From positions 1 to 34,278 of the forward strand of contig RBNJ01000280.1 in the NCBI GenBank assembly GCA_003990765.1: DNA of 34,278 bases. Direction: 5' to 3'. The notes beneath the pieces were generated by a model, which saw nothing but the letters and a program-made list of their open reading frames with translations, was not told where the DNA came from and made no database searches. Shown here piece after piece: positions 409-34,278 of this stretch (positions are counted from its first letter, which is position 1; each line of letters starts with the position of its first letter). Both the position numbers and the translations under genes were made by a program. The DNA is from Jimgerdemannia flammicorona (lineage: Eukaryota).

Positions 409-420
409 ATATATATATAG

Positions 421-3400
421 ATGAAATCTTGCAAGATAACTTCAACTTTTTTGATATTAGCTTTAACTCTAGCTTTGATTTCATCTCTATCATCTCTATC
501 TCTACCTCTACCTCTATCTCCATCTCTACCTCTATCTCTATTTGTATATTCATATCATCTATCTCTATATTTATCTTCAACTATGATCTATGAAATATAT
601 CTATCTTCAACTATGGTCTATAAAATAATCAATTATACAAAACTTAAGATTTCTGAACTTAAAGCAAAATACAGAGAGTTTAGCCTACTAATTGATAGTA
701 TAAAGAAAGTGCTGATTACAAGATTGTAAGAATTTCAGAATCCTTGCTAAGCTTTATTATTATCTATATTATCTACTAGATAAGCTCTATCATCTATATC
801 ATTTACTAGAAGAGACTCAAATCTACCTTATCTCTATTGAAATATCTATACTATAGACTAGTCAGAGAGACTATATTTACTCAAAGAGACCATCAGTACC
901 TCAACTGTTTCTATCTTAGTTAAAAACAAAACTTGGTTTACTTAATTAATAATACTTCTTCCAATAGCTCAGAGAATATCTTTGTTATTAATATCAATAT
1001 TATTCACATTTAATAGTTTTAAGATAAATGACTAAAATAGTATTAGTAATAATAGTAAAAGATCTAAATATAAAAAATCATATTACTATAAGAAATAATA
1101 AGTAATCAAGATAGTGATATATATAGTTAATGAAGATCAGAGTATATCTGAATATATATTAGGACCAATAGATAAAGCAGTAGATGAGCTATACTCAATT
1201 AGTATACAATATAGTAGTTATAAACTATTAATATATATGATATTATAACTATTAGTTTTTTTTCTATCTCTTTCTCAAGTATGAGATTAGAAGTATATAT
1301 CACTGACATTTTATAGAAATAGTACTATATGAGGTTCTAGACTATGCAATTACATTAGCAATCTGAGTATAGGATGAGATTGATTGATGGAATAAAGAGC
1401 TTATAAAGATAGAACAGATACTATAATATTAGCTTTATTTTGTAACTAAAAAAATCTAATCTAAACTATCATAATCTATACTCAATACTGTTAGATACTT
1501 TTTCAATTTTACCTTTAGCTTCTACATAATGATGAGTTGGTTTCTACTGACTCTTATTACTCATACTATAAGACAAAACTACTACTTTATCACAAATATT
1601 GACAAAAGAGCCATTACTGATCAAATGATAAAGAATTTATTAAGATAGATTTGAAACTCTTATACATATAATAGATATTTTGGATAATAGTTATTTATCT
1701 GAGTATATAGTAAAGAAATCTATCACATACTCCTTTCTCTGCTACCTTACTGGTCACAATGATTTGGTAGGCAATCTTCCAAGTCTACTTTCTACAATTA
1801 TTACCCCCTCTACCTCAGGTTGGTTTGCTGTATCTGTTGCAGAGCAGTAGGAGGGAGGCAATAGTAATGAGTTACCTCTTTATCAGTGTCAGATTGGTGT
1901 CTTCTTTACTTTTTCGTGGTTTCTGGTATCTTTGGCTACATCTGGAGTATATCTGTTTTGGTGCAGCACCTTCTTCCTTTTGCCATCACTAATAAGGTAC
2001 TGTCTCGGTATATCTTGGGCTACATAGGGAGTCAGCTGACCTTGGGCATCAAGTGCTCAGTGTAGATTACTTGCAGGTCCTTGGTATCTGTAGTGGGGCC
2101 CTCTGACTTTGGCAAGCTTCCTGGCAAGTGTGGTTCTGGCGTAAGTGACTGTTTTTCAGATATTGTCAGGATGGGAGGGGAGATGGCTGTCACAGATAGG
2201 AGAAAGAGCAATAATGGTAAACCAGTAGAGTGCCAGGCTGGGGACAGTCATCAGGACTGGGGTGGGTGTTGCTTTGGTGGAGCCTTTTGATTGATATAGT
2301 ATAGTTAGGTAGTAGATATCACTCTCGGCTTCTTTTGGCAGGTTGGCGAGTCAGGCTCCAGTTATCAGGAGGGGTCAGAAGACCTGAGGCTACCTATTTT
2401 AGACATCTTGGCTACACTCAAATAGAACTGGAAGCTGATATGGCAATGTGATCAAGGCCCACAGACTTAAGTAGTGGGGTATTGGGGGTCTCCTCCTGTC
2501 TTATATATAAGTCCTTTACTCACCTCAACTAGGAGAACTAGGCCCTACCCACCATGTTATGCTTTGATGAGAGTTTTTCTTTACCTGTTATTCTCTTTAG
2601 AGTAGTAGAGACTATTCTATTTGGCTCAGGCATATGTAGCCTTATACATACATTGAGTTCTTGGGTGTATACTTTCAGTCATTAGCATATGGTTGGGTTT
2701 CCCCTGGTGGTAGGGAGAGTATGATATATAGAATGAGGTATGGGCTGCTATAGGCTCTACTGTGTCTGGTATGGTCAAGCTGCTGGACAATAGCTAGCCT
2801 AGATTAATGGGGGGGCAGTGCTTGATGAGTGGTGGGGGAGGGTTTTGGCCTATATAGTCTAGGTTCCCTTCTAATAAAAATCTACAGAACATTGAGTCTA
2901 TTAAAAAAAACAAAAAACAAAACAAAAAAACAAAAAACAAAAAAACAAAGAAATCTATAAAAACCAAATAGAGATATATCTGTACTATTAATCCTAGTAC
3001 TTAGACCTTTTTAACTTGATAAATGATTTATTTAATTTTTATTTATTTATTTTATTTTATTTATTTATTAAAAAAAAAAAAAACTTTTTAGGTATTTCTC
3101 TATATAAAAACATAGTTGTTTTTGGTGAAAATAATATTCAACATATTGTCCAGCTGCTTCTTTTTCTTAATAATCTTATTTCATATATCAGCTAGGTACT
3201 GGCTCAATGATGAGATAAGTTTCATTATATACAAATACCTATATATCAGAGAATAAAGAACCTGATCGATAAGTGTTACAAGAAAGCAGCATTGTGATTT
3301 CTAATAATATTTGATATAGTTATTATTTTATGGTTCAATTTGCATTTAATGGTTGGAAAAAAAAAAAGATAAAAAAAGAAGACTCAATAGGCACATAGTG

Positions 3401-3783
3401 TACAAGATGTTGACATAGAGTCATGGTAATTATGATAATTTTTTTTTTTTTTAATTTATTATCATTTTCTTATTCTTTTTCTTTTGTAAGACTCTCTGCA
3501 ATGACAGAACACCCATGCAGTATAAACTCAGTAATTATTTTTTATTAGGGCATTTCTCAATTGATTGCTCAACAAGGCTGAGGAGCTAGGAAAGAAGGTG
3601 GTCATTATTTCTGAGGCATATACATCAAAGACATGTAGTGTATGTGGGTGGATCAATCAGGGGTTGGGCAGTCAAAAGATCTTTCAGTGCTGGGATTGTA
3701 AATGGATAGTAGATAGAGATGTAGATGGCACCCAAGGGATCTTTCTGAGAGGACTTCTGTTTCTCAAAGGGAGATCTCAATGA
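421..3783 (+). pseudogene. Degenerate Fanzor2 (IS607-TnpB-like RNA-guided endonuclease) gene with N-terminal SAP domain, two introns and a LINE insertion
   Basis: Motifs occur in the expected order and most are restorable by C>T/G>A reversal plus a few 1-nt frameshifts. SAP-like 634-726; N-terminal PY-W..SERLYL.KET..KTWF 826-939; MKIRVY(P)..Q..KQ(W)M(G)..(R)LVYN from 1130; V(P)YEVLD ~1322; (F)(RSRKDPTQ)TI at 1441; RuvC-I CTI(D)P(G)T(R)TFLT 2981-3016; FGE..IQ.IV.LL..L..LIS 3121-3183; QRIKNLID.C.KKAAL(W) 3247-3297; RRLNR..V.KMLT(W)SH 3377-3424; intact LLNKAEELG..SEAYTSKTCSVCG..C..C..DRDV.G..GIFLR 3565-3750. Putative introns at ~3019-3091 (donor eroded GT>AT, ends TTTTTAG) and 3426-3548 (GTAATT...TTATTAG). 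Confidence 0.85.
1724..2946 (+). mobile_element. 5'-truncated, degenerate LINE inserted into the Fanzor gene
   Basis: Exact 12-bp TSD AAAGAAATCTAT at 1712-1723 and 2947-2958; AATAAA ~2874 and A-rich tail 2903-2946. ORF2 C-terminal remnants (EGG motif ~1851, NWKLIW ~2426, eroded C-x2-C zinc-knuckle-like ~2546). Higher GC than the flanking Fanzor relic. Confidence 0.8.
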
Positions 3784-3789
3784 AGGTTT

Positions 3790-4080
3790 TGCTTGATGGA
3801 GCTGCCCAGGTTGCGAAACTTGGTGTACGGGGTGAATTTCACGTGCCTGACTAGTGTTGACTAGCCATGGTTAGTGATGCTCGCTTAGACCCATCCGGGT
3901 TCCGCATTTGACATTTTCGAAATTCAAAAGAGACATAGGATGTTGACCTACAATAATTGGAGGGCTTGGGAAGGCTGTATCGGAGGTTGTGTGGCGTGTA
4001 TTTGAGTCGAGCAGCACTACAGTTAGTGTTGGGGCAGAAAAGGACGTTCGGTGCGGAATGCCATAGGTCAAATCTTTCGG
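3790..4080 (+). ncRNA. Candidate Fanzor omegaRNA scaffold / element right end
   Basis: Directly downstream of the RuvC-III/Zn-finger exon and CpG-retaining. Local hairpins at ~3824-3846, 3851-3864, 3867-3894 and ~4013-4030. Crossing long-range helices 3900-3906/4052-4058 and 3937-3950/4064-4076. Ends in TCTTTCGG. Boundaries are inferred. Confidence 0.55.
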
Positions 4081-4340
4081 TTACAGCTGTGTTGAGGGGC
4101 TGAACTTTTTGGCTCCATTCCGATTATATTTTGCAGTTTTTGTGTAGGACAAGGACAGGAATGTAAATGTAGGTACGAATATTAAGCACACAATGTTTGT
4201 GGGCGTTTTTTGCAAAAGAAAGAATCCACCAGGTACCTAATTACACTGAAGCGGACTATATACAAATTAACTAGTCTTCAGCTTTTATCGAAATATTCTA
4301 CTCTCCGAACAGGAAATTATTATACGCCCCATCGCCTCCA

Positions 4341-7300
4341 TCACGCTTGCTCTCGCCCGTCGTCATTATCCACGCGTAGTCCGCCCGTGGATGTTGGTGC
4401 ACCGTCTAACACTGCCAGTCCATCACGCGGTGGCATAGGTGTACTACGCGGCGGCACGGATGTATCACGCGACCGTTCCTGCACACCATACAGCGACTCA
4501 ACACCGCTACCCCCCTCCTTGTTCACCGCTGCCTTCGCGCCCCGCCAATCATCGTCATTATTGTACGCGCTGTGTAAAGAGCTAACGTTACTCTGGAAAC
4601 TCTGGGTGGAAGAATTGTGCCCGCCTTGATTGGAGAGAAACGTCGGTGTCAATGGCGAGAGCCGTTGCATGTTGGGATACATATTGTCGAGGTCGGTGGT
4701 GGGCACATTGGAGTCGAAGCCGAGCTCGTCGTAAGGATAGCGGCCGTCATAAGCCGCGTCGTCGTCCTCGACAAATAAGCCGTCGTCCTGATCCTGTAGG
4801 CCAAAGGATAGCCGGCTGAGCTGCGTGCTGCGCTTGTGTTGGAGCGACATCTCGCTCGGCGACGTCAGCGGTGGTTCCACCGCCCTCTCGCTCCCATCGC
4901 CGTACGAAGATCGAAAGCTGTGCGGTGGCGGGATCGACATCGACAGATCGGTCGACATCGATGCGCGCGGCGTGGGTGATGGGTTGTCCCTCCTATCATC
5001 ATCTCCGAGAACGTGGCTTTGTGCAACCTTCTGCGAGCCGCTCTCACTCTCGTCATCATCATCGCCATTCTGGGCACTATACTCAATGCCACCATCCCTG
5101 CTCAAGTTATGAACATTCATGTTAGCGTTGGCCACCACCGTGTTGAGCCCTCTAGGCCCTCTGCTCATGCTGTTTCGTGGCGTGCTCTCGGTACTGCTCG
5201 AGAGACTATCGCGCATCATGTTCTTCACCGTTAGCATGCTCTTCCGCGGGTTTCCGTCGCCGTCCATCCTGGTATCGAATCCGACCCATTGTAGCGACGC
5301 GACGGACCGGTTCCCGGCCGAGGATGCCGAATTCCGCTGCATGCGCCGAGGTGAGTCTGGGATCTCGGTAATGGGCGACGGGAGCTTGCTTGCTGTCTTG
5401 TAGGAGCGGTTGACGAAGAAGGAGCTTGAGCTGCGCTTCGAGCTCGGGCTCTTGCTAGCCCTGGCGCTGGAGGGCGAAACCATGTTGTTGGAGGGCAGCG
5501 TCGGGACGGCGGACGAGGGATTTGAGTCACCGATTGACCTGAACAGTGTGACGGGGTTCACGTTGAGTGTCAGGCGGCGCTTCGTCTTCTCGGGCGCTGC
5601 GGGCCCGGAGGACACGGAGGACAATGCAATCACTGAGCCCTGCGTGCCGTTCGATCCGGTTTCCGAAATGAAACTGGCAGGCGTCGGCGGGACCGACTGG
5701 GCCGAACTGTCGTCGCCGGGGATCTCAGGAAGTTTACCCGAGCCCGTGCTTCCTGCTTCGTTGGAGAGGACGTTGGGCAACGAGCCTTTGCGAAACGCCG
5801 GCATGGAACCCTTTCGCGGCATCGAAGCATTCCCCTCGTTGGTACCCTCGCCAAACCATCCCGATTCTGACGCCGACAAATCCGGGCCTCCACTGCTGGC
5901 GTAAGGAGCAGGATACACACTGTTGAGTTCGGTCATGTTGACGTTCGTACCGAGGCCTGCGTCCAGCCTCACTGGATCTGGGCTGCTGAACAACGAACCT
6001 CTTCCTCCAAGCCACTTCTTTGCCTTGGGTGGAGCTTGCAAGATGACAACTTGATCAACGTTCAGTTTTCCAGGTTGTCCGGTGATAGAACTCGATCTGC
6101 TTCGGAGCCGAGTATGCATCTGGGATGACGGCAGGAGTATGGGAGACTTGCGTTCACGCCTCCTTCGTCGGACTACGCCAACCAAGATCGCCAGACCGGC
6201 GATGACGGCTATGCCCACGCAGATGGCGACGATCGGGCCGAGCCCGATAGAACTGCCCGTGGGGAATGGGGTTGGAGACACTGACGAGCTCGCGGATGCG
6301 GTGATGCCACCCGTGGCGATCGTGGTGGCAGAAGGGTACTGCGCTTGCACGGCTCCTCCCGCTATCCACTTCATCGCGTTGAGATCCAGATAGTAGAACG
6401 CCGAGTCGGCGGTGGTGTTCGTCGCAGTTTGGCCACCAAAGACCATCATGATGCTGGAGTTCGGACCGACCAGAAGAGCGCTATGGCCTGATCGGGCCGA
6501 TGGTGTTAGATTAAAAAGAGGTGCGATAGTGTTCCGCTGTGACCATGACATGGTTGGGAGCTTGCTGACGTCGAGAACCCAGACATCGTTGTAGAGTTGG
6601 TTGGTCAGATCGTTAACACCACCGAAGGCAATGAGGCTCTGATTATCCGGACCAAGGATCATGGTGGCGTACGATCGAGCAGCGGGGCCTCCTGCATGGG
6701 TGTACAGAGGGTCAATGTACGTCAGATTGTTTGTATCAAAAATTGTGCAGTTCGATAGAGGTGCGCTCTTGTCATTCCGCCCAAAGCAGCTGACTAGATG
6801 GTTGCTGACCGCGACAGTTGAATGCCCAGCGAAGGGCTGTGCAGGATGGGCCTTTGGAAAGACGACCGGTGTCCATGCCAAGGTTGTCAAGTCAAGGTAA
6901 GAGATATCCGAGATGACTTTGGGCGTCTTCGGGTCGGGCACCTGACCTCCAATTACAAACACCCTGTTGCCGACAATCGTTGCCGTGTGAGCAATCCTCT
7001 GTGTCGGCGTTGTGCCGGTCGTCTGTACAGTCGTCATGTTCTCGAGCCCCACGTCCAATATTCGGACTGGGTCGGCGAGTATGCTCGCCGGTGATGTCTG
7101 GGTCTGGCCGAAAAGCGTCATCACCTTATTTCCACCAAGACCGACAACACTATGTCCGGTCACTGCGATGCTCAGGTTGAGCGGCTGAGTGAGTTGGAGA
7201 GCGATATTTGTATTCAGGACGTCCGTCGCGATGGTGTTGCTATTGATCAGCGTGCCTCCGATGGTTATCACTCTTGATGAGTCGATGCGTGTCGAGACGT

Positions 7301-7418
7301 GATGGTATCGGGGTAAGATATCGGCCGCGATGATTGAGAAGATGGACAGAAGGCAGAGAACGGTCTCGCCATAACGGAGTCGGCGGTGACGGGAAGGGGG
7401 TATGGATGAGCGAAACAT
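4341..7418 (-). CDS. Type I membrane protein with extracellular Kelch-repeat beta-propeller and long Ser-rich cytoplasmic tail
   Basis: 1025-aa intronless ORF. N-terminal hydrophobic signal (VLCLLSIFSIIAA); Kelch motifs (R.AHTATIVGNRVFVIGG, GHSTV..LVSCFG, PAARSYAT..LIAFGG..LYNDVWVLD, PSARSGHSA..MMVFGG); TM helix PIVAICVGIAVIAGLAILVGVV followed by RRRRRERK. Confidence 0.9.
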   Translation of the reverse strand: MFRSSIPPSRHRRLRYGETVLCLLSIFSIIAADILPRYHHVSTRIDSSRVITIGGTLINSNTIATDVLNTNIALQLTQPLNLSIAVTGHSVVGLGGNKVMTLFGQTQTSPASILADPVRILDVGLENMTTVQTTGTTPTQRIAHTATIVGNRVFVIGGQVPDPKTPKVISDISYLDLTTLAWTPVVFPKAHPAQPFAGHSTVAVSNHLVSCFGRNDKSAPLSNCTIFDTNNLTYIDPLYTHAGGPAARSYATMILGPDNQSLIAFGGVNDLTNQLYNDVWVLDVSKLPTMSWSQRNTIAPLFNLTPSARSGHSALLVGPNSSIMMVFGGQTATNTTADSAFYYLDLNAMKWIAGGAVQAQYPSATTIATGGITASASSSVSPTPFPTGSSIGLGPIVAICVGIAVIAGLAILVGVVRRRRRERKSPILLPSSQMHTRLRSRSSSITGQPGKLNVDQVVILQAPPKAKKWLGGRGSLFSSPDPVRLDAGLGTNVNMTELNSVYPAPYASSGGPDLSASESGWFGEGTNEGNASMPRKGSMPAFRKGSLPNVLSNEAGSTGSGKLPEIPGDDSSAQSVPPTPASFISETGSNGTQGSVIALSSVSSGPAAPEKTKRRLTLNVNPVTLFRSIGDSNPSSAVPTLPSNNMVSPSSARASKSPSSKRSSSSFFVNRSYKTASKLPSPITEIPDSPRRMQRNSASSAGNRSVASLQWVGFDTRMDGDGNPRKSMLTVKNMMRDSLSSSTESTPRNSMSRGPRGLNTVVANANMNVHNLSRDGGIEYSAQNGDDDDESESGSQKVAQSHVLGDDDRRDNPSPTPRASMSTDLSMSIPPPHSFRSSYGDGSERAVEPPLTSPSEMSLQHKRSTQLSRLSFGLQDQDDGLFVEDDDAAYDGRYPYDELGFDSNVPTTDLDNMYPNMQRLSPLTPTFLSNQGGHNSSTQSFQSNVSSLHSAYNNDDDWRGAKAAVNKEGGSGVESLYGVQERSRDTSVPPRSTPMPPRDGLAVLDGAPTSTGGLRVDNDDGREQA

Positions 7419-8392
7419 ATGACGTTATTTCGGGAGGGGGAGAAAAAGCTCACTTATGAAAAGGAATGGTGTGTGGAGAACGCCCGAAAGGTGTTTAGGG
7501 AACCAGGATAGTTTGCAGAGTTCATTAACTTTGGGTATGAAAACCCCGTTCGGGAAAGCAGACCCTGATTACGGCAGGAGTCTCTATGTTGTACGTAGTA
7601 GGTATGTTCGGAACAGGAAAGCACCACAAAGTTAGCTGTGCATGACGAAGCCTTTCGTAATATGATGTCCCGATGTCGATTGAGAACCGACACCAGCACA
7701 TCGATTGAGGTATCTTTCGCCTGTCAGGGTGTGTCAATATGTCCCGCTGGGAATTTTGCCGGTGCGAATTTCACGGTGCGACCGCGTTTTAATGAGCTCC
7801 TTCCATTAAAGGAAATCATCGAGCCACCCCCGCTCGCCATTGGCTGTCACCATCACGAGCCTGTTTCACATTCGTGTGTCGCTTTTCCATCGTTCCAAAC
7901 TGTTGGAACACACGAGCTTTGGTCACGCTCTTGCTTATGTACTTATCCGCCGCCGTCTCACAACCATCGACTAAGCCTTCGTTGTTACACAAACGTCGCT
8001 AAGTTGCTCTATCTCCGTTTGTGTGGCTGAAATAAAAATAGCAGAACTTGGAGATTCGATGTGGGTGTGGGTGTAACTAGATTGCCCCACCAAAGTGAAC
8101 ATATCCACATTTGATGAGAACTAAGCATCCGTTGTTGATATTTCGGGCACGAAAAAGATATTAGGAGAAATTACATTTGTGATGAACTTCCGATACTCCA
8201 CTAACCTATACTTTTTTAAAATGACAAAGTGATGCGAGAATGAGATGGATGGGTGCTAATGCCAAATGCGTAAACGGCCAAGAGCGGTGATACATATTAA
8301 TAAACATACAGGGTTACTTATTTACATTCAAAAATTGGTATAATACGAAACAACATATTGGACGATATTATTGGTTGCGGGCAATGCGCGCG

Positions 8393-18460: not shown

Positions 18461-20489
18461 ATGTCATCCCCCAGCCTCTACGACCCTCCGGTCTCGCGCA
18501 AGGCACTCATCCACGCAATACGACCACACCTGCCGCCACAACACCTCGAACCCCATCCCAATAACTCCCCAGGCCCACCGAGCCCCGTTCCTTACCACCT
18601 CCAAGGTGCCTCCATTACAAACGACATCTACAAGATGCACAACGACCTCCTCACCACAACCCTCCCGCGCTCTCGGTCAGATATCTCCCTTGCATCAAGC
18701 CACCACCCCGTCTCAGCCACCGATCCTGTCCTCGACAATGTCGCCAAACCCGGCGGCTTCCGTCGCTTCTTCGTCCACTCCCTCCGCCCCCCTACCCCAA
18801 CACCAGACCCCGCGCCCACTCCCGCGATCTCGCAAACCTCGACCTACCAGTCCTTCCCGGATCAGGAGCTCTTCGAGGAGCCCCCTCCGGGCCTGCCCAA
18901 GCGCACGCGCCACTTCCTCGAGTGGCTCGCCATCAACTACATCTTTGATCGTTTCGCTGGCGAGGACCTCTCTGAGTCCGAAGGTGAAGACGGCCTGTCC
19001 GATGACGAGAACCTTCCCTACGGCCAAGACGACCTCCGTCCGCCTTCTCGCGCGCTCTCCGAGCGCGCCCCGTTACTCCGACGACGGTCTTCGTCCATGG
19101 GCGAAGGCCTGCCGCAAGCCAAGGCCACCACGCTAAAGTCCTTCTTCCTGCTACTCAAGGCGTTCATCGGCACAGGAATCCTGTTCCTGCCCAAGGCGTT
19201 TTCAAACGGCGGCGTCATTTTCTCTGCGGTGTTCTTGTGGTTCATTGCCGCCGTATCCATGTTTGCGTTCCTGCTACTTGTGCAATGCAAAGAGGTTATA
19301 ACGGGAAGCTTTGGCGATATCGGGGGGACGCTGTATGGGAAGTGGATGCGGATGGCCGTGCTGTTCTCGATTGGGTTGTCGCAGGTTAGGATTGTGTAGT
19401 TTTGTGGGCGTGTGTACAGTTGGGGTTTTCCGATGCGCGGGAGGTTGTATACCATCATTTAAGTCCCTCTTGCTTCCTTCCTACCCCTTCCTGATCTGGC
19501 TCCATCACGTCCTCCACCAGATTGGCTTCGTCTGCGGTGGCAGCATCTTCATCGCCGAGAACCTTCAGCTCGTTATCAAAACTATTACGGACGGTGCCGT
19601 CGTCATTCCTTCCAAGACCCTCCTCCTCATCCAAGCCCTTCTCCTGACCCCGTTAGTCCTCATCCGCAACATTGCACGCCTCTCCTTCACTGCCCTCCTC
19701 TCCGATGTCCTCATTACCTTTGGCCTCGCCGTCCTCGTCTACTACGACGTCCGCAAACTCCTCCTCCCTCCCTCCTCCTCCTCTAACGACCCCTACCCCA
19801 CTTCCTACCAAACCCTCACCCCAGGCCCGGACATCGTCTGGACCATCAATATGACCTACTACCCGGTCTTCATCGGCACGGCTGTCTATTCCTTTGAAGG
19901 TATTGGTCTCATCATCCCCATCCGTGACGCCATGCTCCACCCGGATCAGTTCCCTCTCGTCCTCGCCGGCGTCATGACCCTCGTCGCACTCGTCCTCTGC
20001 CTCATCGGCGGTCTCGGTTACATCGCCTATGGTTCCGCCGTTCAGACCATCGCCCTCTCAAACCTGCCCCCAGAATCGCTCGTTTCCGCCATCCGATGCC
20101 TTTACGCCTTCGCTATTATCCTCTCTGGTCCTCTTACCCTCTTCCCGGCCACCCGCATCGTTGAACAGGCCGTTTTCGGGCACCGCACCGGAAAACACGA
20201 CTGGCGCGTCAAATGGCAGAAAAACTTACTCAGAATCGCCGTCGTCGCTGCATGCATGGTCGTCGCCTACCTGGGCGCGTCGGATCTCGACAAGTTTATA
20301 AGCTTGATCGGATCCGTATGCTGTACGCCCCTCAGTTTCATCTTCCCAGCCCTTTTCCATCTCAAGGCCGTAGCTAGGACCAGGGTCGAGAGGATCGCGG
20401 ACGTGGCACTGTGTGTGTTTGGCGTCATCGTTATGATCTTCACCATGTCCGTTACGGCAGGCGAGTGGGCTGGAGCGGGCTGGTGGTGA
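18461..20489 (+). CDS. Vacuolar amino acid transporter, Aa_trans/AAAP (SLC36/Avt3-Avt4-like); 2 exons, ~630 aa
   Basis: Exons 18461-19384 and 19521-20489 (GTTAGG...CACCAG, phase 0). Motifs PGGFRR, FAGEDL, LLKAFIGTGILFLPKAFSNGG, GSFGDIGG.LYG, GTAVYSFEGIGLIIPI, KWQKN, LDKFISLIGS.CC.PL.FIFP..FH. Confidence 0.92.
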
Positions 20490-27530: not shown

Positions 27531-28006
27531 TGTAACATAGTGGATGCTTACTCTTGAAAGTACGTTGGATTTCTATATCTTGAAAACTTGACTGTTCTGA
27601 CTCTCGCAGAGTCTCTTGAAGTTGCAGGGGAGGGTGGGTGAGTTCAAAGTGTATCTGTCTACAGGCTTACTAGTTCCTTTGCTATCTCTTTGCTTTGAAC
27701 TATTTTGATCTGAGGTTTATTCACTCGAAGATACTGGGTTATTTATACAAGTTTGCTAGCTATGAGAGGGTGGCTAAGTAATAAATGAGTCATTTGGACT
27801 TTGTCGAAACATTTAGACAATGTCTAAATGTTATACTAAATCGGGGTATCTGATTTGGATAATGTCTAAAATTTAGACAATATCTAAGAATTTAGACAAT
27901 GTTGAAATCGAGGACTGCTAACTATAATGCTATACTACTTTGGAAATGGGTGCGATCAAGTGTCTATTCTCTATTTCCTTCTTCCAAATCTGGCTGTACT
28001 GTCACA
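27531..28006 (-). mobile_element. Complete 476-bp LTR (copy 2; 3' LTR of a minus-strand element)
   Basis: Termini TGTAACA...TGTCACA (TG...CA with a short inverted repeat). Minus-strand purine tract AGGAGGAAG(T) abuts the LTR at 28007-28016. Repeat of 1-408. Confidence 0.88.
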
Positions 28007-28397
28007 ACTTCCTCCTGAATGGATGGTCTCATCCCTAAGGCATCTATTCAAACTCTCAGGCTTCAACAGTCTGTATGGTCTTGTACTGTGCAATTTGCTG
28101 CATGACTGTTTCCCAATGATGTCTTCTCACTTTCTCGAAGTCAGTGGGAGTTACTCCTCTCAGGTGGTCTATTGCTGTTTCATCTTCTCGGAAATAACTT
28201 GTGGATCCTTTTGGCAATAGTGATCTGTGAGTAGGAGAGTTGACACGTGGCAATCCAGTCCTCCTTGGTCTTTGCTGGATCCTGATTGAGCACCTGTCCA
28301 AGCTTGAAGTACTCTTGGAATTCTGCCCGATATTGATAGGCTCTAAAGTGTAAGATCTGAGAGAGATGAGTCTGCACCACCTCTCTCCACTACAATT
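28007..28397 (-). mobile_element. 3' internal region of the LTR element with a frameshifted ORF remnant of unknown type
   Basis: Lies between the PPT/LTR and the LINE 5' end. Minus-strand frames ...AEFQEYFKLGQVLNQD...ITIAKRIHKLF / EDETAIDHLRGVTPTDFEKVRRHHWETVMQQI. Confidence 0.5.
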
Positions 28398-28458
28398 CAC
28401 ATTACACACACTTTTCAACATACTTTTGAAGCATTTATTGGAGAAAGATACTAAGGCA

Positions 28459-30492
28459 ATGTCAACCAGCAAGCAAGCTGACATGTATACTAGGTCGGGT
28501 GGACCTGGAGCCTTCGACTGGCAGACTGTTGGGAGAGGATATGGATTGGGAATGGGGTCTTTCGGTGGCTCGAGTGGGCAGGGCAGCTCGGGTAGTAGAG
28601 GTGGCACTGGTGGGGGGGCTGGAGAGAAGTAGGGGAGGAGCTTTGCGGACATGCTGAAGGGTGGGGGCTGGCCGATGGGCACTCATGGTGGACCGGCGGG
28701 AGGGAAGGGGAAGCAGAAGGATGGAACCGCTGGGGGAGCTGGACCTTCGCTGGGGAGAGGTGGGGGAAGTGGAGGGACGGCTGGGGGTAGTAGTGGGACT
28801 GCTGATGGTGGTGTGACGGTGAATCTGGAAAAAAAAAGAGATGTGACGATTGATGGCCAGAGGGGGCAGGGGCTCCCAATGCGGAAGGGGGACCTGGCTG
28901 ATGGTGTAACGGGACTGGCGGTGGCCCCGTTGCTCAAGAAGTCAATCTCGGAGTTCGCGGCTACCTTGTGCTTCCGAGGCTTGGCAGTGATGATGAGGAT
29001 GGTCCTGGGGCTTATCTCGAAGCAGGTGGCTGGTGCGGCCTCGATAAAGTTCTTGAAGAGCATGGAGGGGGTTGAGGTGGGCTTTGAGGAGGCAGGCCTA
29101 CTGGACGAGGCCATGAAGACAGGAGTGGTGGTTGGGGAGGTAGTAGTCCCCATGGTTAGGTGCTTGAGGTGGGACCCCAGGGTCATGCAGCTTCTGGTGA
29201 GGGGGGTGCCCACAGTGACTAAGGAGGAGACTAGGAGGAGGGTGGAGGAGGTGATGGTTGAGTATGGTGACGTGGTGGACATTGGATTTCAATTGTGGGA
29301 GGGGATGACTATCAGGATGGGTGACATCGATGTTAGGATTCGGTTGGCAGAGAAAGAGGCCACAGGGAAGCCGAGTGACTGGCCCTCAGTGCTGATGTGG
29401 GGGGCTGTCATCTGCAAGGTGTCGAGGGTGAAGGGGAGTGAAGAGGAGGAGGAGGACTTGTTGGAGGTGCTGGAGGAGTTGGGTGGTGCTGTAGAGAGGA
29501 GGGCAAAGGCCTGGAAACTGTTTGAGGAATCGACACATCTGGAGGTTGTGGGCGGGAGGCGTATCCGTATGGATAAGAAGCAGTGGGAGTGGATCCAGGG
29601 ACGCAAGAGACAGAAGGAGCTGTTGGCGGATATGACAGGTAGGGGGAAGAAGCAGTCAGGTGAAGCTGAGGAGTCTGGGGGTGCTGAGGCCAGTGTCTGG
29701 GCTAGTAAAGGAGGAGAGGAGGTAGAAGCGAAGGAGGCAGGGGCTGGGAAGGGGCTGGTCAAGGACCCATTTGCTGATGGTACCTTTGAAGTGTGGGAGC
29801 CGGAGTTGGATGCCACCCCCCCCCCACTTATCAGGAGGGGCCCAGTGGGGATGTGAGGGAGGCAGGAGGATACACGGATGCAGGGGGCCCAGCAGGTGTG
29901 CTTTGGGGTCCCTAATGTGGCTCAAGGGGGTCAAGTGGTGGCAGTTGGTGAGGATGAGCTGGTGGATGTCCCTGAGGAGGAGTGGGATGAGGCTGCTAGT
30001 GTAGGAGCTGATACTACGATGTTGGATGCAGGGCAGCTGGGGACTCCAGGAGGGAAAGAGGTGGGGAACTTGTTGTGAGTATGCAAGGTGATGGATAACC
30101 TTGCAGCAGAAGCATTGGGGAAGGTAGATCTGCGGGCGATGCCTGAGGAGTATTGGGCAAGGATCCTGTATGGGGATGGAATGGTGGAGGCGCTGAAGGT
30201 GGAGATTCTGGTGATTTTGCTGGAGGAGGAGGGATATGAGGTGGATGAGGTGAGGAAGGCAGACCTGGGGGTGGTCGCTGCTGAGTGGGCAGCCTACTGT
30301 TGGGCAGAGCGTCGGGGTCTACAGCTCTGGCAGGAGACATGTCTGGAGTATCGCGAGGATTTTGAGGAGCGTGAGGATGGGGCAATGGTCGAACTTCTGG
30401 GGGAGTTGGAGGCACGGGAAGCTGGGGAGAGGGAACTGGCTGCTGAACTTAACTTGGACCTGGTGCAGGAGAGGCAGGATGCCGACTTATAG
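28459..30492 (+). pseudogene. LINE ORF1 (gag-like), disrupted
   Basis: ATG 28459, Gly-rich N-terminus, SFADMLK, RRM-like VRGVP...EYGDVVDI. In-frame stop at 28630-28632, frameshift at the C-run ~29816-29826, stop at 30076-30078. Confidence 0.7.
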
Positions 30493-30524
30493 AGGGTGGG
30501 CTTTGCTATATATCATTATTCTTT

Positions 30525-33500
30525 ATGAACAGTACAACCAACATTTTTTCCTTGAATGTGAATGGGCTAAGGGGATCTGGGTGGCGTCGGAACATTTTTA
30601 CTTGGCTCAAGGGATTGGAGGCTGATCTCTTTTTATTACAGGATGTTCGATGTGAGGATGAGGACAATCGGACAGAGTGGACTAAGGAGTGGGGGGGGGC
30701 TGCTGCATGGTTTGGAAAGGTAGCCATTCTGGTGAGAAAAGGCAGAGGAGACTTGGGGGGAATCAGGAGCTGGGGTGATCACTTGGTCTGGGGAGATTGG
30801 CATCGGCCGGGTTGGGAATCGGTGAAGGTGGGCTCTTACTACTGCCCTGCGGCTAGGGGTGAGCAGATTGCTTGGATTAGGGGATTGCTGGAGGAGGGTA
30901 CTCTCTTGGAGGAAGGGGTAGATGTTCTTAGTGGAACTTTAATATGGTTCGGGATCAGCATCTGGACAGAACTGATGGAGGGAGGAGTGCCGGGGGTAGG
31001 AGTGGAGGTCTGGATGCGTGGGAGGAGGTGGAGATGTTGAGCTCCTTGGGGGATATGGGCAGAACGAGGTGGGGTGATGCCAGGGTCTACATGCATTGGG
31101 TGAATGGCCTGGGCACAAGAATCGACTGGATTCTGATGGCAGAGTGCTGGGGTTCGGATGTTTGGAAGGCGTTGGAAGTGGAGTGGTGCCCATGGTCTGA
31201 TCACTGGGGACTATTGGGGCAGGGGCAGTTTGGGGGGAGTGGAGATGGACCCGGACATTGGTGCCTTAACTCCTCCCTGCTGGCTGAGAAGGGGCTGTGA
31301 GAACTTTGGGTGAAGGACATTCAGGCAAAAGTTTGTACTTGGAAGCATGAGGGTTTGCCTGTGGCTGTCTGTTGGATGTGATTGAAAGAGGCTGCAAGGG
31401 TTTATTGGGGAGAGGCCGGTAGGGAGGCTGGGAGGCTGAGAAGGAGGCGCATGAGGTGTGCTTCCAGCAGGCTGAGAAGACTACAAGTGGATTGGGCGGA
31501 CTTGCTCACTGTTGTGGAGGTGGAGGATTGGAGGATAGAGAGGGCGAAATTGGATGTAGTGGAACTACAACAGGTGCTGAGGGAAGAGGAGGAGATACAT
31601 ATGTGGGGCATGGCTGCTAGGCTGCGGTGGCAGGGGCTTGAGGAGGGTGAGCAGCCTACTAAGTACTTATCGAGACTTCTCAAAGCTAGGCAGGTGCGCC
31701 ATCGGTGGGATGGGGTCCTGGATGCTGATGGGGACATGGTTCATGGTACGCAACAAATCCTGGGGGTCTTGAAGGAGAGATGGCAGGGTTTGTGGAGTGA
31801 GGGAGAAGGGGGTGCAGATGGGGCAGAGATTGCGGATTCACTAGAGGAGTGGGAACCACCGCAGGTTGATGGACTGGGAGACTTGATCTTACCAGTCCAG
31901 GGAGAGGAGATCCAGGGTGTCCTGGCAGCAACTAAGCTTGGGACGGTGCCAGGAGAGGATGGATTGCCGTGGGACTTCTGGAAGAAGATGGTGAATGTCC
32001 CCGGAGTGTTGGGCAAGATGGCTGGTCTTTGTGACCATGTCCTTCAGAGTGGTACGTGGGTTGGTGAGCAGGATTTGGGACTGGTGGCCCTACTGTACAA
32101 AGATAAGGGAAGAAGGGAAGACTGGAAGAACTGGAGGCCGATTATGCTACTGGATATAGACAGGAAGATGGTGACTAAGGTGATTGTCACGAGGCTGCAG
32201 AAGGTTGCCCAACAGGTGCTGGGAGAAGAGCAGAGGGGCTTTGTTAGGGGTAGGCTAATCCGAGATGGAACTGCATGGGTTCATGGAGTCATTGAGGGGG
32301 CCCAGGTCTGTGGGCTGGATGGAAGGTTGGTCTTTCTGGACCAGGAGAAGGCCTATGACCGTATATGGCGGGTGTGGCTGGGAAAGGTGTTGGACTGCAT
32401 TGGTGTTCCCCCAACATTTAGGGCCTCTATGTTGAGTCTGCTGGAAAGTAGTTGGGCAGCTCTGACATGTAATGGTTATCGCAGGAGGGCTTTTTCTTTG
32501 GGAAGGGGAGTGCCTCAGGGGGACCCTCTGTCCCCGATTCTCTATGCCCTTTCACTGGAACCATTGTTGGATAGGATTTGCTGGAAGATAGTGGGGCTCT
32601 CTATATTTGGTATAGTGTGGAAGGTGGGGGCCTTTGCTGATGATATGGTGGTTGGACTTGGGTCTGTGGCGGATGTAGAGGCACTTCTGGGGACTGTGGA
32701 ATGGTATGAGGCCCATTCGGGGGCAAAACTCAACTGGTATAAGTGTGAGACAATGGTGCTAGGGAATGGGTTAGTGGGTGGGGACGTCATTGGAACAATT
32801 GTCCCTACTGGTGAGGTGGTGCGGTATCTGGGCATCTTCCTCTCTGTATATGGTTCTGTCTTACTACGAGTGTGGTGGGAGGGCAGGGTGAACAGTTGGG
32901 GGGAGGCCCTTCGAGGATGGGGAGGCCGCCATATCTCTCTAGCAGGGCAGGTGTCAATCCTGAATGTATATTGGTTCCCGAAGCTGTGGTATGTGGCATA
33001 TTACCTAGACTTCCTAGCATGGGTGGTGAAGAAGCTAATGAAGGTGGCTAGGGACTGGATTTGGGCAGGGAGGAGGTCCCAGGTCAGTTGGGATACTCTG
33101 GTGAGACCGGTAGTCAGGGGAGGTCTGGGCCTGGTGGATTTCCCTAAGAGGCTGTACTGCTTGAGGGCCTGGTGGTTGAGGAGAGCTGTGGAATTGCAGG
33201 GCGGGGGTTGGGTACCTCTGCTGCAGAAGATATGGGAGATGCGAACCTCCCCTCGATGGTCCTCCAGGGATCTGCTCTCTTTGGTGGGGCTGAATGGAGT
33301 TTGGCGACTGTGGTTCAAGGGGTTTTGGTGGGGAGTGGCTGAGGGAGCACACCAAATTGGCCTGCGCTGGCAGGGTAATGAGGGGGAGGTGGCATGGGGG
33401 CCTAATATGTGGCGTTGGGATAGTCTGCTCCTGGGGGGTACTCCCCTAGCTGCATTCGATATTGAGGAGGGGGTGGAGTGTCAGCAGGGGCTTGGCCGGG

Positions 33501-34183
33501 ACCTTTGGCCGAGTAGCTGGCAGATAGTTGGAATTGGAGAAGAGTGGAACTGGGCAGGCATCTGGTCTTGGAGTGCTGAGGTCCAGAGGTGGCTCCCTCC
33601 CAAGTACTGGGTGGTATAGTGGAGAATGTTACAGAGGAATGTCATGCTGAATTTCTACTCAGGGTATCTAGTTGAGGGTGGACAATTTGACTGCGAGGAG
33701 TATTATGATGTTGGGCAAGCTGGGGATTATGTACAGATGCCAGAACATTGGCTGGGGGAGTGTGAGGTCTTAAGGGAATTTTGGGTGGAGATAGGGAATA
33801 GATTGGGTATTGGGTGTAGGCAGGTGGGGGAGGGGGGTTGCTGGGAGGACTTCAAATCTCGGCTTGTGGGTGGGGTTGGGGACAGTTGGCTCACTGTGGG
33901 ATGGGTGTTAGCAGTATGGGTGGGACTGGCAGGACATTGACTTTTCATATTTGAGAAGGGGCAGTAGTTGGGGTTACGTGAGAAAGTGTTAAGGTGGGAA
34001 GAGCTGGTGGGGGATCTGCTGACCAGATGGTGGGTGGGTTGGGAACCTCAGAAGGGCAGACATCAAGGTTTAGTGATGAAGATATGTGAGCAGAGTGGTG
34101 GGAGGATGAGGATTGTGTTCAACAAAGTAGTCTTTCACAGAGAAGGAATAGGGGGGAGAGGCCCCCCTAGGGGGATTGGATAG
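30525..34183 (+). pseudogene. LINE ORF2: APE endonuclease + reverse transcriptase, disrupted
   Basis: Endonuclease motifs SLNVNGLR, LLQD, G.FN (frameshifted ~30935), RIDWI, SDH. RT motifs PGEDG, WRPIMLL, QRGF..GRLI, LDQEKAYD, GVPQGDPLSPILY, FADD, RYLG, GGLGL. Stops at 31298, 31379, 33617, 33938 and 33965. Confidence 0.93.
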
Positions 34184-34278
34184 GGGGTGGGATCATTATA
34201 ATTATATAGAATAGATTGGTAATAAAGGGCAGTCCAAGAGACTATAAAAAAAAAAAAAAAAAAAAAAGGAAAAAAAAA

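Follow-up and report, generated by a model that had tools for sequence, protein, structure and literature searches.

A dead IS607-type Fanzor2 transposon copy in Jimgerdemannia flammicorona with a candidate omegaRNA scaffold at its right end

Fanzor2 nucleases in eukaryotic IS607-type elements, those of fungi among them, together with intron gain in such elements and ghost omegaRNAs, have already been published (PMC3627910, PMC10530073, PMC10432273), and the pseudoknot of TnpB and Fanzor2 joins a 5′ segment of the RNA to the bases that immediately precede the guide (10.1101/2023.08.09.552727, PMC11832414), as far as the available portions of these sources go. The window, by which we mean the whole analysed stretch of 34,278 nucleotides (assembly GCA_003990765.1, contig RBNJ01000280.1), carries a dead copy of a transposon of this kind, with a serine recombinase, TnpA, and a Fanzor2. 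The family resembles ApmFz2 of Acanthamoeba polyphaga mimivirus (IS607EU, PDB 9B0L) in the combination of a TnpA serine recombinase with Fanzor2, in ends that are not of the TIR type, in the DPG and shifted-E signature and, going by the accessible part of the ApmFz2 description, in a right-end scaffold whose 5′ segment would form a pseudoknot with the last bases before the guide. It differs in its scaffold (205 nt in ApmFz2, about 115 nt here), in its TAM (GGG in ApmFz2, predicted RCCG here) and in its residence on a fungal chromosome with introns of spliceosomal type, the window copy being moreover dead. The IS607 TnpB of ISXfa1 is similar in that, in the portion of its report at hand, both junctions carry the core as a direct repeat, the target and the element's own right end have different bases outside it (GGG/CGG there, RCCG/TCCG in the window family), and a scaffold hairpin contains the recombinase repeats (10.1101/2023.08.09.552727); that system is bacterial, has a GG core and was experimentally tested, whereas the features of the window family are predicted from sequence alone. 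NlovFz2 of Naegleria lovaniensis is also a Fanzor2, and its measured 5′-CCG TAM is the motif found at the insertion sites of the window family; the likeness drawn here is one of TAM motif, and the available part of the source gives no transposase association as detected for NlovFz2 (PMC10432273). The ghost Spu-1 omegaRNAs of Spizellomyces punctatus, which are loci of omegaRNAs lacking a functional nuclease gene, provide a further parallel, but they belong to Fanzor1, share their genome with intact genes and have scaffolds of proven function in the part of the report consulted (PMC10432273), and the window family is known only as sequence. Among the papers listed by the literature searches none dealt with the window's Fanzor2 family, and the supplementary Fanzor tables of three reports (PMC10432273, PMC10530073, 10.1101/2023.08.09.552727) may list it.

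The body of the window copy is made up of the following parts.

1 to 408, strand unassigned: LTR end of a high-copy retroelement, ending in TCACA, which removes the left end of the element and the recombinase gene (at least 30 matches over 1-409/422, 95-96%).
409 to 1723, forward strand: 5′ remainder of the IS607-Fanzor2 copy, with heavy C>T/G>A decay and many stops (tblastn pieces at 1310-1665).
1724 to 2946, forward strand: nested 1.2-kb poly(A)-tailed high-copy retroelement (12-bp target duplication at 1712-1723 and 2947-2958).
2959 to 3783, forward strand: 3′ part of the Fanzor2 gene, with in-frame stops and TGA at 3781-3783 (from the sequence).
2978 to 3016, forward strand: RuvC-I, its DPG decayed to NPS (from the sequence).
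3426 to 3548, forward strand: putative intron in the Fanzor2 gene (GT-AG stretch).

The ORF remnant upstream ends in a zinc-ribbon domain of TnpB/Fanzor type (PF07282, E 3e-15), in line with the original prediction that a dead Fanzor lies upstream; the gene is destroyed. A close homologue has 9b0l as its best PDB match (E 1e-25), and the published Fanzor2 pattern, DPG-x(120,160)-E-x6-CxxC-x(12,18)-CxxC-x(4,8)-D, is present in four of seven close homologues (P0002, P0011, P0014, and P0017); of the other three, P0001 and P0003 begin after RuvC-I and P0005 is without DPG. The window Fanzor2 itself keeps the RuvC-II E six residues before a C4 zinc finger and the RuvC-III DRD, its RuvC-I DPG now reading NPS. 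In the whole genome 70 PF07282 matches and 57 IS607 TnpA matches were found, many of them on shared contigs, and an IS607 serine recombinase lies upstream of the Fanzor gene in other copies and in L185, an unmutated relative on a metagenome contig. The recombinase gene is absent from the window because the LTR cuts the copy at 408. CCG stands at both junctions, and neither TIR nor TSD is seen, as in IS607EU. A full copy of the window's subfamily, C3353, measures 4089 bp, which makes this subfamily about 1.2 kb longer than subfamily B (2840 bp). The window copy is dead, given its stops, decayed RuvC-I, 1.2-kb insertion and truncation by the LTR. Taken as one account, a dead TnpA and Fanzor2 copy that ends at 3897, a homing cycle at RCCG drawn by inference and a right end surviving mainly as a passive edge together form the best explanation, and we hold it to be highly probable.

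Several smaller features of the family can be recorded here. An extra proline-rich stretch follows an apparent duplicated Fanzor start at 409-780 of the window and in L138 (G000:C3353), and it presumably contains a SAP-like motif. The GT-AG stretch at 3426-3548 is confined to the window's subfamily; among the window, L021, L024, L019, L020, and L185, an intron after RuvC-I occurs in the window's subfamily, L021 and L185 and is absent from L019/L020, differences that suggest recent gain or loss inside one transposon family. The poly(A) retroelement of 1724-2946 is also found in or beside L013, L014, L017, L028, L029, and L108 at differing positions, an association with Fanzor copies that may be chance, given 6267 first-look candidates. 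Locus L114 (G000:C10868) shows the left part of the window's subfamily and then, within a TA run, the beginning of the LTR whose end occupies 1-408 of the window, and it could be the other junction of the LTR insertion that cuts the window copy at 408.

The right boundary was determined with positions 3500-4200 as the query. Among the 38 other matches in the own genome, 28 stop at 3893-3903, 10 stop before it and none extends beyond. A terminal CCATCCG, or a variant with one to three changes, is present in 25 of the 28 inspected loci, after which the flanks are unrelated, with local scores of 14-25 as against 460 for the self comparison. Contigs from two outside runs depart from the reference at 3893-3897, and the only own-genome match of 3898-4340 is itself. 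Since copy homology stops at 3893-3903, the flanks are unrelated and 3898-4340 is single-copy, the right end of the element is 3897 (…CCATCCG), and the DNA beyond it belongs to the host.

3898 to 4340, strand unassigned: host DNA present once, on the 3′ side of a kelch gene (own-genome search).
4341 to 7424, reverse strand: kelch-repeat gene of the host, convergent with the element (domain and homology search).

Over the searched region the product of the kelch gene shares 99% identity with a protein of Jimgerdemannia flammicorona and 56% with one from Endogone, which places the host among the Endogonales fungi. The original prediction had placed an omegaRNA of about 290 nt at 3790-4100, ending at 4080 or alternatively at TATCGG (3983), with two long crossing helices and a guide at 4081-4100, and we give this version next to no chance. 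The quoted strings are all found where they had been placed, and a long scaffold is possible in principle, that of ApmFz2 being 205 nt in the available part of its description (PMC11832414). No copy extends past 3903, so that the true end lies about 180 nt before 4080; position 3983 falls in single-copy host DNA and has no copy support, and the proposed guide is host DNA as well. Both helices lie in the host DNA 3′ of the kelch gene, and they are at chance level: of 2000 versions of 3790-4100 produced by dinucleotide shuffling, 159 contain crossing perfect helices of 7 and 8 bp, as do 11 of 67 natural host segments of 311 nt, figures that leave out a 5-pair G-U/bulge extension of the second helix, which would lower them. 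The folding z is −0.22 for 3784-4100 and +0.17 for 3898-4100, neither fold holds the two helices, and a cross-family structure model described below has no match there. Aligning the right ends of the copies, as had been proposed, did reveal a conserved end, but conservation stops at 3897, 114 nt past the stop codon, and 3898-4100 is unique kelch 3′ flank, an outcome that had been named beforehand as refuting the prediction. A right end that resembles an omegaRNA and is capable of a pseudoknot does exist, at 3781-3897 instead of 3790-4100.

3781 to 3897, forward strand: candidate omegaRNA scaffold, coinciding with the right end of the element, its 5′ start being putative (copy boundary, fold, covariation, and cross-family model).
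3791 to 3802, forward strand: 5′ hairpin GCU/AGC with loop UGAUGG (comparative structure).
3795 to 3799 with 3891 to 3895, forward strand: predicted pseudoknot of GAUGG with CCAUC (comparative structure).
3803 to 3827, forward strand: hairpin with a GCGA tetraloop, its stem length shifting between subfamilies through structure-keeping indels (comparison).
3830 to 3886, forward strand: long hairpin carrying TAGT-containing direct repeats, which are also at the left end (comparison).
3895 to 3897, forward strand: terminal CCG with T before it, directly repeated at the left junction of full copies with A/G before it (junction comparison).
3898 to 3917, forward strand: predicted guide, the first 15-20 nt of the flank, its length taken from the literature (matches just its own empty site).

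Across the copies, conservation of the segment 3781-3897 runs as far as the right end, past which the flank varies, and the folding z of the segment is −1.98 (8/200 shuffles). Divergent families from the genome and from metagenomes have in common a 5′ GGC..GCU(U/G)G(A/G)UGG and the terminal CCAUCCG, with little that can be aligned in between. For 19 sequences from divergent families, the 5′ hairpin, the loop-to-end pseudoknot and the bases of two hairpins were modelled; 91.6% of 359 cells are paired, compared with 33-46% in slid controls, and two-sided changes occur in 12 of the 19 pairs, a structure having been drawn here from the very sequences it is tested on, and related sequences being able to beat shuffles. 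The pseudoknot is paired in 96.8% of its cells in the 19 sequences and has no two-sided changes; two of its pairs are invariant, one has a one-sided change and two are only broken. RNAalifold, run on the 19 sequences, failed to recover the modelled structure and gave just a weak alternative 5′ helix. A cross-family model built from 11 sequences, with the window's subfamily excluded, has one significant match in the 34 kb, namely 3781-3897 (E 2e-7; next 0.58), a test that is not fully independent because its sequences were first gathered with a pattern from the window's family. A search of Rfam returned nothing of note (two matches, E 2.1 and 4.8). A motif-anchored pair table was dropped, as it was circular via its own pattern and 6 of its 41 rows halted at a wrong internal site. 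Collectively, comparison of the sequences shows that the last ~115 nt are both conserved and structured across Fanzor2 families. In L089, L104, and L090 the scaffold is located 110-230 nt downstream of the zinc-finger exon, from which an intron-like stretch separates it, and these families likewise end in CCATCCG.

The right end could also have been kept among families merely as DNA, i.e. as recombinase repeats and coding sequence with an incidental fold. The TAGT repeats, which are likely candidate binding sites of the recombinase, are present at both ends, the 5′ hairpin overlaps the ORF in some families, the pseudoknot pairs do not covary and alifold recovered little, all of which would fit such an explanation. 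It nevertheless appears highly improbable to us, since GGC..GCT(T/G)G(A/G)TGG is retained whether it is read as ALLDGA, as GFA-stop or lies outside the ORF, the stems carry two-sided changes and structure-keeping indels, and both position and pairing agree with the TnpB/Fanzor2 pseudoknot.

With 3781-3897 taken as a candidate scaffold, the junctions provide a prediction for the TAM. Left ends read (A/G)CCG and, after the junction, CTCAAAAAATCG. Among 30 loci, 8 of which are truncated or duplicates, a purine precedes CCG at all 22 anchored left ends (18 A and 4 G), as against 321 of 609 host CCG. The transposon would thus insert at RCCG, and RCCG is therefore predicted as the TAM. No empty site was found among the loci examined, and because of this we infer how CCG is split between element and target. 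An inverted-repeat left end at GATCGG upstream of a window-like segment was rejected, the true left end being about 2 kb further up. The predicted guide of the window copy starts at 3898 with GGTTCCGC; in the own genome, guide plus RCCG has 6 other matches at 2 mismatches and a control has 5, which is background. By analogy with ISXfa1 and with a homing model, in the part of its source that was available (PMC13565253), TnpA in live relatives would insert or move the element at RCCG through the CCG core, and the right end with 15-20 nt of flank would form the omegaRNA. Fanzor2 could then cut the emptied donor site (TAM RCCG plus flank) and spare the element's own end, TCCG, and repair of the cut donor site would restore the element.

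The unmutated relative L185 encodes MerR, Resolvase and Fanzor2 and has the same ends; its Fanzor2 consists of three exon-like open stretches (exons read by eye and unjoined), its right end lies at 2771-2876, and it looks like a complete intron-bearing TnpA and Fanzor2 element. L190 and L193 are further unmutated close relatives in metagenomes. The window locus itself is a fossil, and what can be used from it are the ends as corrected here, a compact scaffold whose pseudoknot can be put to the test, and the TAM prediction. This prediction (RCCG, own TCCG spared) covers a fungal Fanzor2 family with an intact-looking member; since L185 is natural and looks intact, a TAM assay needs no rebuilt protein. 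Functional confirmation would give a class that is already known one further compact RNA-guided nuclease.

The preservation of the scaffold has to be considered together with the decay of the rest of the copy. The decay is C>T and strongest at CpG (136 of 270 cells, compared with 95/429 at CpC, 72/376 at CpA, and 48/443 at CpT), a pattern that fits what would be expected from cytosine methylation of repeats. Among the papers listed by the literature searches none dealt with methylation in this fungal order; the repeat load of the genus is reported in the accessible part of one source (PMC10386755). The contrast in CpG that had first drawn attention to the region is real, with 14 CpGs in 3790-4080 and none in the ORF tail (3553-3783); 5 of them are in 3790-3897 and 9 in the single-copy host DNA of 3898-4080. 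In 11 copies with CpG-rich flanks, 6 of 653 cells carry C>T/G>A changes over the final 120 nt, and the count climbs to 109 of 443 at 251-340 nt; the figure for the final 120 nt of 5 copies with CpG-poor flanks is 46 of 303. Flank CpG and end CpG are correlated over 17 copies (Spearman 0.54). In C3353, retained CpGs reach 79 nt inwards on the left side and 83 nt on the right side, and the interior has none. Flank-dependent decay and the symmetry of C3353 therefore favour a passive edge, and the retention of CpG at the right end is probably for the most part such an edge effect rather than selection on the RNA. CpG-biased C>T decay would fade within ~80-130 nt of unmutated host DNA, and the scaffold would survive mainly because the decay fades close to this DNA; mutation fading near the host gene, which had been offered as an alternative at the outset, is thus the better reading. 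A purely passive edge does not predict, and leaves unexplained, that pooled CpG survival at 51-90 nt is deeper at right ends (36/48) than at left ends (3/20, or alternatively 5/20 at one site), the two pooled sets being different copies of mixed age. Two further data sets were set aside: LTR ends as a control for the edge effect, which consisted of copies picked by best score with flat retention of 0.35-0.9 and CpG-poor flanks, and an all-context left-end decay profile, inflated by mixed subfamilies and chimeric tails.

The same observations can be turned towards transcription or selection, by which 3781-3897 would be kept since omegaRNAs of dead copies load a live Fanzor2 in trans and guard their own insertions. 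The near-zero decay across the last 120 nt coincides with the scaffold, pooled CpGs survive to a greater depth at right ends than at left ends, a G-U pair is preserved by the change that the window carries at 3809, and ghost omegaRNAs function with SpuFz1 in the available portion of that report (PMC10432273). A weak hint comes from two runs whose RNA nature is a guess. Their deep contigs match two dead copies, other than the window's, at the 3′ end: the contig of run X1 agrees with L003 (G000:C13596) at all 12 diagnostic sites, and the contig of run X2 carries the two deletions of L017 (G000:C81). These contigs cover the last ~280-310 nt of the two copies and their matches are unstranded; because L017 and a NAD kinase gene are convergent, read-through is as likely a source as an omegaRNA. 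The absence of cover over 3898-4340 in two guessed-RNA runs carries no evidential weight. We judge loading in trans to be unlikely, because protection follows the flank and is symmetric in C3353, guide targets do not exceed background, and no intact Fanzor2 is seen among the 70 own-genome matches, whose longest open frame is 240 aa, introns and a fragmented assembly limiting this count. For the window copy itself, the trans-loading first suggested is without support. If it were true, guide RNAs would outlive their own genes under genome defence.

A bolder version, to which we attach only a slim chance, is that dead copies express intact ~115-nt omegaRNAs for a rare live Fanzor2 and that the CpG-containing RCCG steers the family to unmethylated DNA beside genes, where right ends would escape decay; a standing guide repertoire would then exist within a methylation-silenced genome. 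Survival mainly as a passive edge remains our preferred explanation. Elsewhere in the window, an amino acid transporter gene is located at 19302-20489 (PF01490), and 28000-34278 holds a LINE-like element that is G-skewed and less CpG-depleted than the Fanzor copy, its reverse transcriptase frame lying at 31382-33619 (PF00078).
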